Shown here: one piece after another, positions 2,270 to 16,422 of the stretch | How positions within the stretch are numbered: the first letter of the stretch is position 1 | Layout of the letters: every line of letters starts with the position of its first letter | Virus record (IMG/VR): IMGVR_UViG_2526164632_000023 | DNA from: a virus | Lineage: Duplodnaviria > Heunggongvirae > Uroviricota > Caudoviricetes | Direction: 5' to 3' (one strand) | Length of the DNA: 17,922 nucleotides | The notes under the pieces: generated by a model | The model's input: only the letters and a program-made list of their open reading frames with translations | Told to the model about the DNA's origin: nothing | The model's database searches: none | Position numbers and translations under genes: made by a program

Positions 2270-2302
2270 CATACTGATATATTTATAAGCATTATCAGTA
2301 TG
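2270..2302. repeat. Perfect inverted repeat (10-bp arms CATACTGATA / TATCAGTATG, 13-nt spacer); terminator or operator candidate
   Basis: Read directly: catactgata at 2270-2279, reverse complement tatcagtatg at 2293-2302; 23 bp after the stop of the 1471-2247 ORF and upstream of alpA. Confidence 0.5.
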
Positions 2303-2384
2303 TTTCTATGATTACTACTGTGTTTTAATCCAGTATTAAAGATTGCAAAATAGCCTCCGCAAGCATAGATACAGTGGAGGCAAT

Positions 2385-2669
2385 ATGACAAAAACCACAT
2401 TCATTCCCCCAACTCCAGAACAACGCCGGGCGCTTCTTGAAGAATACGGTTTTGAATTTGATCGCCGTATCCGTGAAAAGGAATGCCAGGAAATCACCAG
2501 TCTGTCGCGCTCAACTCGCTTCAAAATGGAAAATGAAGGGCGTTTCCCGCCTCGTTGTCATTTCGGGCGCAATAGCTGTGCGTGGCTTCTCTCTGATGTG
2601 CTTTGGTGGGTTCGTAACCCACCTGCTGTAGATAAAGTCAATAATCCGTACGGTAAGAAAGCTGCATAA
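2385..2669 (+). CDS. alpA: AlpA-family phage/island transcriptional regulator (HTH, excisionase-like)
   Basis: ITSLSRSTRFKMENEGRFPPRCHFGRNSCAWLLSDVLWWV matches the AlpA/Xis-type HTH. Start chosen at ATG 2385, 6 nt after a GGAGG Shine-Dalgarno (2376-2380), rather than the ORF-track start at 2343. Confidence 0.75.
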   Translation: MTKTTFIPPTPEQRRALLEEYGFEFDRRIREKECQEITSLSRSTRFKMENEGRFPPRCHFGRNSCAWLLSDVLWWVRNPPAVDKVNNPYGKKAA

Positions 2670-2696
2670 GGGGGGAGTTATGACACATAAAACAAA

Positions 2697-2716
2697 GGCG
2701 ACCGGGGGCGGTCGCC
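2697..2716. terminator. GC-rich hairpin between convergent genes (candidate terminator for the minus-strand operon)
   Basis: ggcgaccg / cggtcgcc 8-bp stem with GGGG loop; on the minus strand it is followed by a T-rich tract. Lies between the alpA stop and the stop of the minus-strand ORF at 2781. Confidence 0.4.
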
Positions 2717-2780
2717 AATGGGAAAACACTAAACATAAGCCCGAACATCATAGTGATTTGCTGGCTGGTGGGCAATGTGA

Positions 2781-2969
2781 TCAGTCAGATTTGGTTCGTT
2801 CCAAGGTTTGCAACGAGAGCTTTTTCCTGTGCTCTTTAAGGAATTGCTCAAGGGCAAAAGCACATGGCGCGAATCTTTCTGATTCATGCTCTATCTTTCT
2901 GCGCCGTCTTTTCCGTGCCGGTGATAATGTTTTGGTCAATTCTTTATCGGTCATTGTGTTGTCCTGCAT
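2781..2969 (-). CDS. Small highly basic hypothetical protein (57-62 aa), downstream of the RHH gene on the minus strand
   Basis: ORF MQDNTMTDKELTKTLSPARKRRRRKIEHESERF...; an alternative start at the second Met (coordinate 2954) has an AGGA upstream. No recognisable family. Confidence 0.3.
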   Translation of the reverse strand: MQDNTMTDKELTKTLSPARKRRRRKIEHESERFAPCAFALEQFLKEHRKKLSLQTLERTKSD

Positions 2970-3011
2970 AGCAATGCGCCGTAGTTACTCACACCACGGC
3001 GCTGGTGATGG

Positions 3012-3190
3012 TTACTCCTGCTCTTTGGCCTTGCGACGCTGGCGGCGTTTGATCTCACCTTTAACGGCAGTAACTATAAATTGCGCCTTGCTTTCACCTT
3101 CATCTAAATTTTTTCTAAGTCTGCAACAACATCATGCGGGAATCTGGCATTTAACTGTTGCGACTTATTATTTGTTGAACCTGTTGCCAT
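3012..3190 (-). pseudogene. Ribbon-helix-helix (CopG/Arc/MetJ-like) DNA-binding protein gene, interrupted by an apparent +1/-1 frameshift in a homopolymer run
   Basis: Minus-strand ATG at 3190 gives MATGSTNNKSQQLNARFPHDVVADLEKI then a stop. The adjacent frame continues DEGESKAQFIVTAVKGEIKRRQRRKAKEQE to a TAA at 3012-3014. Adding one base in the A3/T6 run at 3106-3114 restores a 59-aa product with beta-strand, helix, G-x-S turn and second helix. Confidence 0.5.
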
Positions 3191-3301
3191 TACTGAATCC
3201 TCTCTAAGTTGGTGCGATTCAGTATACACAAAAAAAATTTCAGAGAAAGAGTTGAAGTGCGATTCACTTACTGATGGGTTAAAAACGAATGGTGCGATGC
3301 A
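3191..3301. promoter_or_regulatory. Divergent control region with operator-like repeats between the RHH gene and the rightward early operon
   Basis: Inverted repeat TACTGAATC (3191-3199) / GATTCAGTA (3216-3224); three direct copies of GTGCGAT(T/G)CA at 3212-3221, 3257-3266 and 3292-3301; A8 tract at 3229-3236. Confidence 0.45.
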
Positions 3302-3380
3302 CCAAACAACAACGCCCCGCAGTGGTGGCACACATGCAGGGCGTCTAACCACCAACGATAGCGAAAGTATCGAGGTAGCT

Positions 3381-3584
3381 ATGAGAAATTATACCAGACA
3401 CCCGCAAGGGCGGGACTCGTACAACCTGAATAAATACATCTGGCGTTTTATCGCCCTGAGCACGGCACAACCGCGCGTGATTACCATTGAGGCCACCAGC
3501 GAACAGGAAGCACGCCAGCAATCTCCTGATGACTGCGTGATGGTATTCGCCGCCCGTATTCGTCAGGGGGTGCGCCATGCATGA
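3381..3584 (+). CDS. Hypothetical small protein (67 aa), first gene of rightward early operon
   Basis: ATG 3381 preceded by GAGGTAG; the ORF-track extension back to 3252 uses a TTG inside the operator repeats with no RBS. No family recognised. Confidence 0.35.
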   Translation: MRNYTRHPQGRDSYNLNKYIWRFIALSTAQPRVITIEATSEQEARQQSPDDCVMVFAARIRQGVRHA

Positions 3585-3792
3585 TGACCGTTATTTTAAA
3601 TCAATGAGCCATGCAGAAAACGCACTGACTAACAGTGAATGTTTGAGGCAAATATTTCTTATCTGGCTTGATGGTTTAAGTGATGCGCCGGAAGATGAGC
3701 GTGAGTCTAATCTTGCTGGTGCGTTTATTTCATTACTCGATACGGTAATCGTCGAATTAAATAAAGCGATCGAAATTCACGATAAAAAATAA
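3577..3792 (+). CDS. Hypothetical small protein (71 aa)
   Basis: ORF overlaps the upstream stop (coupled arrangement); no family recognised. Confidence 0.4.
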   Translation: MHDDRYFKSMSHAENALTNSECLRQIFLIWLDGLSDAPEDERESNLAGAFISLLDTVIVELNKAIEIHDKK

Positions 3793-7272: not shown

Positions 7273-7357
7273 GTAAGCGCATCATTTAAACCGTCTTTCG
7301 CCTCCCTTTCCTGTTTCCGATACTAATGTCCATTTTCGCAGTAAAAGGACATTTAAG

Positions 7358-8008
7358 ATGAATGCACGAAAAGCGGTACTGGCAGATAATCCAGAATTGA
7401 TCCTGCGTGTGCTACAGCTGAGATTTGACGAGTCACTGTCGTACCCGCGCATTTCTGCGCAGACTGGTGTCAGCAAAACCGCCATTTTTTCTCTGGTGAG
7501 GCGATTTCACCAGGTATTCACTGACTGGCCTCTTTCCGGTGAATATTCCTGCGGGCAACTGGCCCGGGCTCTTTTCCCGGGGCGATACCCTTCAGCCCCG
7601 ACCGTGACTCAGCCTGTGAAAGCAGAGAAACCCCGCCGGAACCGATTTTCACCGGAGTTTAAATGGAGACTGGTTCAGCAAACTCTTTTACCCGGTGCCT
7701 GTGTCGCACAAATAGCTCGAGAGAATGGAATTAACGATAACCTGCTCTTTAACTGGCGGCATCTCTGGCGTAACGGTGGCCTGCAACCGCCCGGCGAACA
7801 TGAAACATCGCTACTTCCCGTGACGTTAACTCCGGAGCCGGATAATAAAATCCCGGCACCAGTGCAGATACCTGAACAGATAAATACACTGCCAGACAGT
7901 CTGTGCTGCGAGCTGGTTCTGCCGGCCGGAACTCTCAGGCTGAAAGGTGAACTGACACCGGCGTTATTACAGACACTTATCCGCGAAATGAAAGGGAGCA
8001 GCCACTGA
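7358..8008 (+). CDS. tnpA: IS66-family accessory protein TnpA (orfA)
   Basis: 216 aa with HTH-like N-terminus; position and sequence typical of IS66 orfA; stop overlaps the tnpB start. Confidence 0.8.
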   Translation: MNARKAVLADNPELILRVLQLRFDESLSYPRISAQTGVSKTAIFSLVRRFHQVFTDWPLSGEYSCGQLARALFPGRYPSAPTVTQPVKAEKPRRNRFSPEFKWRLVQQTLLPGACVAQIARENGINDNLLFNWRHLWRNGGLQPPGEHETSLLPVTLTPEPDNKIPAPVQIPEQINTLPDSLCCELVLPAGTLRLKGELTPALLQTLIREMKGSSH

Positions 8009-8355
8009 TGATATCTCTCCCTGCCGGTTCGCGTATCTGGCTGGTTGCCGGTATCACCGATATGCGAAATGGCTTTAACGGCCTGGCCTCAAAAGTTCAG
8101 AACGTCCTGAAGGATGACCCGTTCTCCGGGCATCTGTTCATCTTCCGCGGACGCCGGGGTGACCAGATAAAAGTGCTGTGGGCTGACAGTGACGGACTGT
8201 GCCTCTTCACCAAACGCCTGGAGCGGGGCCGCTTCGTCTGGCCGGTCACCCGCGATGGAAAGGTTCACCTTACTCCGGCTCAGTTGTCCATGCTTCTCGA
8301 AGGCATCGACTGGAAGCACCCGAAACGAACGGAACGCGCTGGCATCCGCATATAA
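8008..8355 (+). CDS. tnpB: IS66-family accessory protein TnpB (orfB)
   Basis: 115 aa, MISLPAGSRIWLVAGITDMRNGFNGLA...LWADSDGLCLFTKRLERGRF is the conserved IS66 orfB signature. Confidence 0.9.
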   Translation: MISLPAGSRIWLVAGITDMRNGFNGLASKVQNVLKDDPFSGHLFIFRGRRGDQIKVLWADSDGLCLFTKRLERGRFVWPVTRDGKVHLTPAQLSMLLEGIDWKHPKRTERAGIRI

Positions 8356-8374
8356 CCCGTTGTAAAGTGAGGAT

Positions 8375-9945
8375 ATGGACACCTCACTTGCTCATGAGAA
8401 TGCCCGCCTGCGGGCACTGTTGCAGACGCAACAGGACACCATCCGCCAGATGGCGAAATACAACCGCCTGCTCTCACAGCGGGTGGCGGCTTATGCTTCC
8501 GAAATCAACCGGCTGAAGGCGCTGGTTGCGAAACTGCAGCGCATGCAGTTCGGTAAAAGCTCAGAAAAACTTCGCGCTAAAACCGAACGGCAGATACAGG
8601 AAGCACAGGAGCGAATCAGCGCACTTCAGGAAGAAATGGCGGAAACGCTGGGTGAGCAATATGACCCGGTACTGCCATCCGCCCTGCGCCAGTCTTCAGC
8701 CCGTAAACCGTTACCGGCCTCACTTCCCCGTGAAACCCGGGTCATCCGGCCGGAAGAGGAATGCTGCCCGGCCTGTGGTGGTGACCTCAGTCCTCTGGGG
8801 TGTGATGTGTCAGAGCAACTGGAGCTTATCAGCAGCGCCTTTAAGGTTATCGAAACACAACGTCCGAAACTGGCCTGTTGTCGGTGCGACCATATCGTGC
8901 AGGCAACAGTACCTTCAAAACCCATTGCACGCAGTTATGCCGGAGCGGGGCTTCTGGCCCATGTTGTTACCGGGAAATATGCAGACCATCTGCCGTTATA
9001 CCGCCAGTCAGAAATATACCGTCGCCAGGGCGTGGAGCTGAGCCGCGCCACGCTGGGGCGCTGGACAGGTGCCGTTGCTGAACTGCTGGAGCCGCTGTAT
9101 GACGTCCTGCGCCAGTATGTGCTGATGCCCGGTAAAGTCCATGCTGATGATATCCCCGTCCCGGTCCAGGAGCCGGGCAGCGGTAAAACCCGGACCGCCC
9201 GGCTGTGGGTCTACGTCCGTGATGACCGTAACGCCGGTTCGGAAATGCCCCCGGCGGTCTGGTTCGCGTACTCACCGGACCGGAAAGGTATCCATCCACA
9301 AAATCATCTGGCCGGTTACAGCGGTGTGCTTCAGGCCGATGCTTACGGTGGTTACCGGGTGTTATACGAATCCGGCAGAATAACGGAAGCCGCGTGTATG
9401 GCTCATGCCCGGAGAAAAATCCACGATGTGCATGCAAGAGTGCCCACCGACATCACCACGGAAGCCCTGCAGCGTATCGGTGAACTGTATGCCATAGAGG
9501 CAGAATCCGGGGATGTACAGCAGAACAGCGTCTGGCGGCAAGAAAAGCCAGAGCTGCGCCACTGATGCAGTCACTGTATGACTGGATACAGACTCAGATG
9601 AAAACACTGTCGCGTCACTCGGATACGGCAAAAGCGTTCGCATACCTGCTGAAACAGTGGGATGGCCTGAACGTGTACTGCAGTAATGGCTGGGTGGAAA
9701 TCGACAACAACATCGCAGAGAACGCCTTACGGGGAGTGGCCGTAGGCCGGAAAAACTGGCTGTTCGCGGGTTCCGACAGCGGTGGCGAACATGCGGCGGT
9801 GTTGTACTCGCTGATCGGCACATGCCGTCTGAACAATGTGGAACCAGAAAAATGGCTGCGTTACGTCATTGAGCATATCCAGGATTGGCCGGCAAACCGG
9901 GTACGCGATCTGTTGCCCTGGAAAGTTGATCTGACCTCTCAGTAA
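8375..9945 (+). pseudogene. tnpC: IS66-family transposase TnpC, split by an apparent 1-nt frameshift near 9500-9510
   Basis: ORF 8375-9565 has the leucine-zipper N-terminus, CPACGG...CCRC zinc-finger motif and DDE core; ORF 9565-9945 in another frame carries the conserved C-terminus [26 protein letters not shown]. The second frame is open back to 9484, so the shift lies in 9484-9565. Confidence 0.8.
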
Positions 9946-9975
9946 ATATCAATACGGTTCTGGCGAGCCGCTTAC

Positions 9976-11934: not shown

Positions 11935-13149
11935 ATGTGGTGGCCTTTTAGTCGTAAAAAAAGCGATCTGCGTAACCTGTCCATTGATGATTTTCTGGCG
12001 TTGTCTGGTGTACCAAATACCGGATCCGGAGAATATGTTTCTGCCGGGACGGCTGAATCATTGCCTGCTGTGATGAACGCGGTTTCTGTCATCGCTGAGG
12101 CGGTGGCCACGATGCCGTGTTACCTGTATCTGGTACGCAATGATAAGGGCAGAGAGGCGCGGGAATGGCTGGACAGTCACCCGGTAGATATTCTGCTGAA
12201 TGAGCAGCCTAATTCGTGCCTGACACCTTACCAGTTTAAACGCACAATGATGCGTCACTGCCTGCTGAACGGTAACGCCTATGCGGTTATTGAGTGGGGG
12301 CGGGACGGGCAGCCAAAATCACTTCATCCTTATGCGCCGGGGTGTGTTGTACCGGAACGCACAGGCACACACAAATACCGCTATACCATCACCGAACCCT
12401 GTACAGGAACGGTGCGCACGTATTTACAGGAAGAAGTTCTGCATCTCCGCTATGCCTCGGATGATGGCTTTCTGGGGCGTTCCCCCGTCACGATTTGCCG
12501 TGAGGCGCTGGGGCTTGGCCTTGCTCAACAGCGCCACGGAGCCAGCATTATGAAAGATGGCATGATGGCGGCAGGGATTATCACGTCAGGTGAATGGCTG
12601 GACGGCGTGAAAGGTAAACAGGCATTAGACGCACTGGAACGCTACAAGGGGGCGAAAAATGCCGGAAAAACGCCAATCCTTGAAGGGGGCATGGATTACA
12701 GGCAGCTGGGGATGAGTAACCAGGATGCGGAATGGCTGGCCTCCCGTCGCTTCTCCATTGAAGACATCGCCAGGATGTTCAACGTGTCGCCGATTTTTCT
12801 TCAGGAATACAGCAACAGCACCTACAGCAATTTCAGTGAGGCGAGCCGCGCATTTCTGACCATGACAATGCGCCCGTGGCTGGCGAACTTCGAACAGCAA
12901 ATCAAGGCCGCTTTGCTGGTGACTTCTCCCGTACCTGGTACCCGTTATCTGGTTGAGTTTGATTCAGCCGATTTACTGCGCGCCACACCCACCGAACGTT
13001 ATGCCACGTATGAGAAAGGGATTAAGAGCGGGATCATGAATCCGAACGAAGCTCGCGAACGCGAGGGTATGCCGCCGCGTGAAGGTGGTGATGAGTTCAG
13101 CCAGGCATGGAAACAGACTGTGAAAATTAAAGGGAGAAAAGATGAGTGA
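11935..13149 (+). CDS. Portal protein, HK97 family
   Basis: About 404 aa from ATG 11935, immediately after the protease stop; sequence typical of HK97-type portal proteins. Confidence 0.85.
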   Translation: MWWPFSRKKSDLRNLSIDDFLALSGVPNTGSGEYVSAGTAESLPAVMNAVSVIAEAVATMPCYLYLVRNDKGREAREWLDSHPVDILLNEQPNSCLTPYQFKRTMMRHCLLNGNAYAVIEWGRDGQPKSLHPYAPGCVVPERTGTHKYRYTITEPCTGTVRTYLQEEVLHLRYASDDGFLGRSPVTICREALGLGLAQQRHGASIMKDGMMAAGIITSGEWLDGVKGKQALDALERYKGAKNAGKTPILEGGMDYRQLGMSNQDAEWLASRRFSIEDIARMFNVSPIFLQEYSNSTYSNFSEASRAFLTMTMRPWLANFEQQIKAALLVTSPVPGTRYLVEFDSADLLRATPTERYATYEKGIKSGIMNPNEAREREGMPPREGGDEFSQAWKQTVKIKGRKDE

Positions 13150-16174: not shown

Positions 16175-16422
16175 CGAGAATGAGCGAAACCGAACTACTA
16201 AAAATAATCCGCCGCGTTACCGGAATCAGCCAGCAGCATGACGAACAGGCCACGCAGCCGGACAGCGTGACCGCCGAAAATTATGTGCGTGTTGTAGCGG
16301 AAGTGATGCGCCGTAATGGTATCCAGCTTAATGATGTGGATATGCGCAACATACGGATCCGCGTTCTGGAAATGCTGGCATACCGTCGCCGCGTGGAGAT
16401 GTATCGGGAGAAGGAAAAATAA
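16171..16422 (+). CDS. Hypothetical protein (83 aa) downstream of terL
   Basis: Start overlaps the terL stop (ATGA); no family recognised. Confidence 0.45.
   Translation: MTRMSETELLKIIRRVTGISQQHDEQATQPDSVTAENYVRVVAEVMRRNGIQLNDVDMRNIRIRVLEMLAYRRRVEMYREKEK

Follow-up and report, generated by a model that had tools for sequence, protein, structure and literature searches.

A frameshifted YlcI/YnfO-family regulator gene and a putative repressor/operator switch in a capsid-forming PICI-type phage satellite of Escherichia coli

Switches built from a small ribbon-helix-helix (RHH) repressor and its operators are already known as a kind. The immI region of phage P22 comprises two such repressors, Mnt and Arc, together with the divergent promoters P_ant and P_mnt and the sar antisense RNA. 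The immI region of phage P1 contains the c4 antisense RNA, icd and ant, and the CI RNA of P4 is placed in the C4 family of Rfam; both C4 and CI RNAs come from the sense leader and work via short complementary boxes. The YlcI/YnfO protein family likewise has a name already, and the frameshifted gene is in itself ordinary. The published account of regulation in Gram-negative PICIs includes the activator AlpA only and leaves open whether a repressor exists, while the papers on capsid-forming PICIs (cf-PICIs) mention neither a repressor, nor an RHH protein, nor an antisense RNA, which places a module with such elements outside the published model. In the literature searched, no function was described for YlcI/YnfO proteins, and neither a repressor nor an antisense RNA was found in the Gram-negative PICI/cf-PICI model.

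The DNA analysed here, referred to as the window, is a stretch of 17,922 nt that corresponds, with identical sequence, to contig AIHC01000035.1 of assembly GCA_000250255.2, a draft of the 2011 era. Judged from its gene content, the stretch is a phage satellite of the cf-PICI type, integrated into E. coli with gcd and hpt on either side. When it was compared with the component list given for cf-PICIs (PMC10085698), an integrase, a regulator, a helicase and an own packaging set were found, and tail and lysis genes were absent. The order of the genes was taken from the ORFs of the window and from RefSeq, in which an island of E. coli O166:H15 with 99.9% identity is annotated:

1-1227: integrase gene, the first gene of the island order (ORFs and RefSeq annotation of the relative)
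1236-1302: int-alpA RNA, directly 3' of the integrase gene (Rfam RF02996, 55 bits, E = 3e-9)
upstream neighbours of the control region: gene of a 309-aa hypothetical protein, then an AlpA-like regulator gene (2385-2669)
rightward operon: genes for Icd-like, DUF4222, RepA-type helicase, SSB and ProQ/FinO-like proteins
7273-9975: insertion of IS679 (IS66 family) between the early and packaging modules, with the 8-bp target duplication GGTTGTTC
after IS679: packaging module with capsid, protease, portal, connector, HNH, TerS and TerL genes, followed by hpt

The same element type and the same left-arm order of int, alpA and early operon are found in Gram-negative PICIs and cf-PICIs (EcCICFT073, EcCIEDL933), and islands of E. 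coli O157:H7 and O103 carry an identical YlcI protein. A single nucleotide missing at 9506, outside any homopolymer, divides the IS679 transposase in two. The portal gene is intact in the window, with TGC at 12219; in the closest complete-genome relative a TGA internal stop is present there and the gene is annotated as a pseudogene.

The gene that faces the rightward operon has two features that are needed for what follows:

3012-3190, minus strand: YlcI/YnfO-family (RHH-like) regulator gene, frameshifted (ORFs and alignment with relatives)
3109-3114: homopolymer, T6 on the plus strand and A6 in the sense of the gene; A7 in every relative examined

The ATG at 3190 opens MATGSTNNKSQQLNARFPHDVVADLEKI, i.e., 28 codons (3190-3107) closed by a stop at 3106-3104, and the adjacent frame carries the remainder, ...NLDEGESKAQFIVTAVKGEIKRRQRRKAKEQE, up to the stop at 3012. 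An earlier reading of this DNA, made from the letters alone and called here the original prediction, had described exactly this arrangement of a 28-codon RHH-type N-terminus with the rest of the domain in the adjacent frame, and both parts are indeed present. It had also located the break at a homopolymer run of 3106-3114; the break does lie in a run, but this run is T6 at 3109-3114 only, since the longer interval reads AAA followed by TTTTTT. Alignment with relatives of 99.9% and 95% identity, both with an intact 59-aa ORF, identified a 1-nt deletion in the A7 run as the cause of the break. The protein of the intact relatives, WP_000190566.1 (59 aa), is annotated as "YlcI/YnfO family protein," and the frame-repaired protein of the window scores 63.3 bits against NCBIfam NF041551 (cutoff 30) and also matches phrog_949. 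A search of Pfam gave no match for the repaired regulator, including no direct match to DUF3950, the Pfam family related to NF041551. Members of the YlcI/YnfO family, which occur in prophages of the DLP12/Qin type and in enterobacterial islands, have the same length and share with the repaired protein the EIKRRQR tail, conserved in common by 120 homologues among the matches listed. The copy in the window differs in being interrupted. Across Enterobacterales the homologues, 120 among the matches listed, measure about 53-103 aa and mostly 59-61 aa, so the 28-aa product is not the native length, and the possibility that it might be, which had been named as one that would overturn the prediction, is excluded by these lengths. 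The family protein is a single ORF of about 59-61 aa, and the window copy, stopping after 28 codons, is either a pseudogene or an assembly error.

The assignment of the regulator to the RHH proteins is based on its N-terminus. In a profile comparison its residues 8-32 fall in register with residues 5-29 of P22 Arc (P = 3.4e-4, probability 38%), and within the same match of 38% probability Q12, N14 and R16 align to the three residues of Arc that contact bases, so that the N-terminal strand has the same Q/N/R contact triad as Arc; the sequence homology to the P22 proteins is limited to this N-terminal match of about 25 residues. In an AlphaFold model of the monomer (pLDDT 69) the N-terminus is extended, and helices are formed after it by residues 19-30 and 35-58. 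Neither the single sequence of the regulator nor its profile matched any PDB sequence, and no match for its model was returned by Foldseek. Although these scores are weak, the regulator likely adopts the RHH fold of the Arc/MetJ/CopG type, and it would most likely bind as a dimer. The register with Arc, including the base-contacting residues, thus supports the earlier view of a small RHH-like protein.

Upstream of the regulator gene lies a region dense in repeats, in which the following elements were distinguished:

3191-3224: inverted repeat TACTGAATC / GATTCAGTA, arms at 3191-3199 and 3216-3224, 9 nt, 100% complementary
3212-3222: candidate operator O1, GTGCGATTCAG, which abuts and overlaps the -10 (TATACT, 3226-3221, minus strand) of the regulator's own promoter
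3252-3280, plus strand: predicted rightward promoter P_R, with -35 TTGAAG (3252-3257), a 17-nt spacer and the -10 at 3275-3280
3257-3267: candidate operator O2, GTGCGATTCAC, within the P_R spacer and directly behind the -35
3292-3302: candidate operator O3, GTGCGATGCAC, near-palindromic, at about +5 to +15 of the predicted P_R transcript

The sequence GTGCGAT(T/G)CA starts at 3212, 3257 and 3292; these three exact copies compare with 0.09 expected, and three were reached in none of 200 shuffles. Both the three direct repeats and the inverted repeat had been pointed out before, and both are confirmed. One arm of the inverted repeat lies between the Shine-Dalgarno sequence (SD) and the ATG of the regulator gene and the other lies across O1 and the -10, and the core TACTG...CAGTA persists at loci with other types of operator. 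O3 was also flagged as a small hairpin with a T-tract on the minus strand.

Control regions were compared from Proteus, Pectobacterium, Dickeya, Xenorhabdus, Pseudocitrobacter and Serratia/Rouxiella as well as from other E. coli islands, and a conserved scaffold emerged, composed of the regulator -10 TATACT and, for P_R, the -35 TTGA(A/C/G)G and the -10 T-A-n-n-n-T, which are 17 bp apart. A simple sigma-70 scan did not pick up these promoters, which were deduced from conservation. In an alignment of P_R from 12 loci of five genera, TTGA.G and T..A...T are invariant with the exception of G3276 in the window. On this scaffold a motif of 10-11 bp is present in three copies, about 34, 79 and 105-115 nt from the regulator ATG across loci. 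Its sequence covaries with residues 9-18 of the regulator across six specificity groups from several genera, five of which pair as follows:

motif TGAATCGCAC, residues 9-18 KSQQLNARFPH
motif TGTCTTACAC, residues 9-18 KSQSVTARIAH
motif TGTCAGCCAC, residues 9-18 KSKKLEARVPH
motif TGTGGCCCAC, residues 9-18 KSQALKARVPH
motif TGAACACCAC, residues 9-18 RSLQVSVRLPL

The sixth group (KSQQKTARIPL) is formed by two cf-PICI loci, L029 and L030, in which O1 is unlike O2 and O3: at 1230-1373 of L029 and 491-634 of L030, O1 is TGAACGCCAC and O2/O3 are GTGACTTGCAC, with one copy inverted, which suggests that this control region may be a recombinant or may have a second specificity. The fixed positions of the repeats on the promoters and their covariation with the N-terminal strand strongly support, at the level of sequence, that the repeats are operators of the regulator on a divergent promoter pair, to which it would bind and from which it would repress; they equally support the repressor/operator switch over the replication operon that had been proposed in the original prediction. 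This covariation makes the YlcI/YnfO protein a concrete, testable candidate for such a PICI repressor, and the natural specificity groups provide a small ready set of matched repressor/operator pairs.

Downstream of the regulator, two further features were found on the same strand:

2781-2954, minus strand: small basic ORF of 57 aa (62 aa when 2969 is taken as its start)
2687-2716, minus strand: terminator-like hairpin with a T-tract, stem 2716-2697 of 8 pairs (7 GC), tail TTTGTTTTAT

The small ORF had been given as 2781-2969; it exists, but the relatives in RefSeq carry the shorter 57-aa form of 2781-2954, annotated as hypothetical, and it falls into phrog_21027, of function unknown. It is probably co-transcribed with the regulator, and the hairpin at 2687-2716 would, by its position, end a leftward operon of two genes. 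The order of RHH gene and then small ORF, together with the shared terminator and a potentially autoregulatory O1, resembles the operon of a type II toxin-antitoxin system, and it had been suggested that the two genes form a regulator/toxin-like pair. Such an addiction pair, instead of or besides a transcriptional switch, is however very improbable in our estimate. The ORF has no match in Pfam, NCBIfam or PADLOC, i.e., in toxin or defence families, its only match being the PHROG of unknown function, and while it is kept open with in-frame indels in islands of the E. coli type, it is absent downstream of the regulator at eight loci of other genera (Proteus, Pectobacterium, Dickeya, Xenorhabdus, Pseudocitrobacter, Serratia/Rouxiella), thus the partner is neither a recognised toxin nor co-conserved. 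It lacks third-codon-position bias and a clear signature of purifying selection was not seen, and two of the three operators lie on the rightward promoter, off the pair's own promoter. The suggestion of a toxin pair is thus not borne out.

The start of the rightward operon overlaps with a second candidate element of control, on the opposite strand:

3381-3584, plus strand: Icd-like gene (67 aa in this form), which opens the rightward operon (NCBIfam NF033153, 71 bits; phrog_6196)
3303-3396, minus strand: putative cis-antisense small RNA with its promoter (fold and covariation)
3396-3388, minus strand: extended -10 of the antisense RNA, TGGTATAAT or TGGTATGAT across loci, within codons 2-5 of the Icd-like gene
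near 3382-3380, minus strand: predicted start of the antisense RNA
3380-3347, minus strand: stem-loop 1
3345-3311, minus strand: terminator hairpin, with a U-tail to about 3303

The DNA from O3 up to the Icd-like start codon is highly conserved. The SD and AUG of the Icd-like gene have their complement in the 5' end of this putative RNA. The region folds as a single sequence with z = -3.55, and in an alignment of 18 loci RNAalifold predicted 24 pairs, of which 6 show compensatory changes. In this alignment 99.2% of the cells are paired, and the paired percentage, the covariation score and the number of double-change cells were each reached by none of 500 shuffles; the pair-count and pair-type measures were reached by 18 and 72 of the 500, respectively. 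Canonical pairs make up 99.2% on the minus strand, with 66 G.U cells among them, vs. 81.9% on the plus strand, and because of this higher canonical pairing the structure is assigned to the antisense transcript. A structured leader as an element of the sense strand was considered and rejected, since the G.U pairs become C.A mismatches on the plus strand. A longer form of the Icd-like ORF, starting from 3297 and annotated in some records, was also rejected; its upstream frame is not conserved. A search of Rfam with cmscan returned no known RNA for the control region (2300-3700), either at the gathering threshold or at E <= 10, and the sole Rfam match in the window is the int-alpA RNA.

From these elements a model of early control may be proposed. 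A leftward operon, which would encode the 59-aa YlcI/YnfO protein with its RHH-like N-terminus and then the small ORF, would face the rightward early operon (Icd-like, DUF4222, RepA-type helicase, SSB and others), and the YlcI/YnfO dimer would bind the three cognate 11-bp operators. Since O1 is positioned on the regulator's own -10 and O2 and O3 on P_R, occupancy of O1 is predicted to bring about autoregulation, and occupancy of O2, in the P_R spacer, and O3, just past the P_R start, to repress the early operon. The conserved cis-antisense RNA, about 80 nt long, is a candidate for a second layer, in which it would base-pair to the Icd-like ribosome-binding site. The arrangement appears analogous to that of P22 immI in two respects: a small RHH repressor is encoded divergently from the operon it would control, with operators on overlapping divergent promoters, and a short cis-antisense RNA would cover the ribosome-binding site of the first, regulated gene. 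It differs from P22 in that there is one RHH gene and not two, in that three dispersed 11-bp sites take the place of the Arc/Mnt operators, and in that the operon controlled would be the Icd-like/replication operon of a satellite, whereas in P22 it is an antirepressor. A similar analogy may be drawn with P1 immI and P4, in which an Icd-like first gene has its translation start targeted by a small RNA. Unlike the C4 and CI RNAs, the transcript proposed here is a true, if putative, cis-antisense RNA, and it has no match to the Rfam C4 family at the gathering threshold or at E <= 10.

It has then to be asked whether the frameshift is a property of the island or of its assembly. Relative to the closest island, the window has four indels, all of them -1 changes in A/T runs of 6-7 bases (1421, 3109, 3784 and 16415), and its arms have 12 substitutions, only one of which, G3276, lies in the left 7.3 kb. 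The A7-to-A6 change at 1421 splits the gene of the 309-aa hypothetical protein into ORFs 1319-1429 and 1471-2247, and the indels at 3784 and 16415 alter the C-termini of small ORFs. Three of the four are unique to this assembly, i.e., the allele at 1421 was found in none of 9 complete genomes, the A6 allele at 3109 in none of 71 complete E. coli genomes that carry this regulator allele, and that at 16415 in none of 552; the allele at 3784, with a 71-aa product, is also present in an unrelated metagenome island. The core genome was compared with that of E. coli O111:H2 strain 12A over 8.3 kb on the left and 1.5 kb on the right only, where one substitution and one indel (left) and one substitution (right) were counted. 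The indel falls in a housekeeping gene on the same contig, speE, about 5 kb left of the window (position 3199 of locus L031), where it is an A8-to-A7 frameshift at codon 5. The fraction of runs affected rises with their length, from 1 of 26 A6 runs through 3 of 10 A7 runs to 1 of 2 A8 runs. Altogether, unique indels outnumber unique substitutions in this assembly, which is unusual for real divergence. Furthermore, a Logan re-assembly of SRR096442, from the same strain, has A7 instead of A8 at 3230 and a contig that begins exactly at the 1421 run, which suggests that the reads disagree on the length of the runs. We therefore lean, somewhat beyond even chances, to the view that the missing A is a homopolymer under-call of a 2011-era draft and that the repressor of the island is in reality intact.

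The competing view, already allowed for in the original prediction, is that the frameshift is real, that slippage in the A7 run has put the repressor out of action, and that the island is a locked, decaying remnant; we consider it a substantial possibility, but the less probable one. It gains from the position of G3276, an A-to-G change at -11 of the -10 of P_R, by which TAGGTT of the relatives becomes TGGGTT in the window. The G is present in none of 37 complete genomes with the region, and 11 other loci, drawn from five genera, all have the A. The very promoter that the repressor should silence would thus be changed, as expected of compensation for repressor loss: de-repression of the Icd-like/replication operon, which would otherwise be toxic, may have been neutralised by G3276 as a promoter-down mutation, or the promoter may have died first and the repressor drifted after. 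The insertion of IS679 with its target duplication is certainly real and demonstrates that the island is decaying, and A6 at 3109 is called in the NCBI assembly as well as in that of Logan. Slippage has natural hot spots in A/T runs of 7 bases, and both the 3784 allele and the A7 allele of speE exist in other genomes, the latter in 8 of 5,426 complete genomes; next to its frameshift speE also has a unique missense change, GGGDG to GGDDG, in a glycine-rich motif (position 3444 of L031), and may be a genuine pseudogene. Against this, the allele is a singleton, a spurious ORF across the T6 run is recorded for SRR096442 only, and the density of unique -1 homopolymer deletions relative to substitutions, with a housekeeping gene included, is implausible. 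The heterogeneity of run length between Logan and NCBI points the same way, and the coincidence with the promoter was noticed after the fact. A stronger form of the same view would hold that the YlcI/YnfO protein, the operators and the antisense RNA constitute the immunity (master-repressor) switch of Gram-negative PICIs and cf-PICIs, and that the window is a genuine repressor-null allele kept viable by the compensatory G3276. If true, this would make the window a natural genetic experiment linking repressor and promoter; we regard this combination as unlikely.

It had further been supposed that the repressor might be phase-variable, and the A-run could then be a functional device, serving phase variation or, through a programmed -1 slip of the ribosome or the RNA polymerase on GAAAAAAT, the low-level synthesis of full-length protein. 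Lys-tRNA on A-runs is slippery, and a -1 shift on A6 recreates the exact wild-type ...EKNLDEG.... The run has, however, no polymorphism of length in the 71 genomes, the longest A-run is of 3-6 bases in other alleles and genera, neither a downstream stimulatory structure nor a canonical in-frame X XXY YYZ heptamer was found, and all relatives among the matches listed encode the protein in a single frame. With no polymorphism, and the tract absent in homologues, the locus lacks what defines a phase-variable contingency locus, and the supposition of phase variability falls on the same counts, A6 being missing from the complete genomes and the A-run not conserved in the family. We hold such a device to be extremely improbable, and the A-run is an accident of codon choice in this allele. 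The frameshift was accordingly judged not to be a regulatory device. It is of little weight either way, as an assembly error or as one more lesion in a decaying island, and the surrounding switch is of greater weight. The explanation that accounts best for the whole is a cf-PICI early-control switch combined with an artefactual frameshift, and we hold this joint statement with evenly divided confidence.

A further locus, L041 (CP061258.1), carries the same left arm, composed of integrase, the 309-aa gene, AlpA, the 59-aa regulator, helicase and SSB, next to a different packaging module with a lambda-type capsid E, a decoration protein and Nu1. Since the left arm is joined there to a different packaging module, the control module is common to cf-PICIs and classical PICIs.
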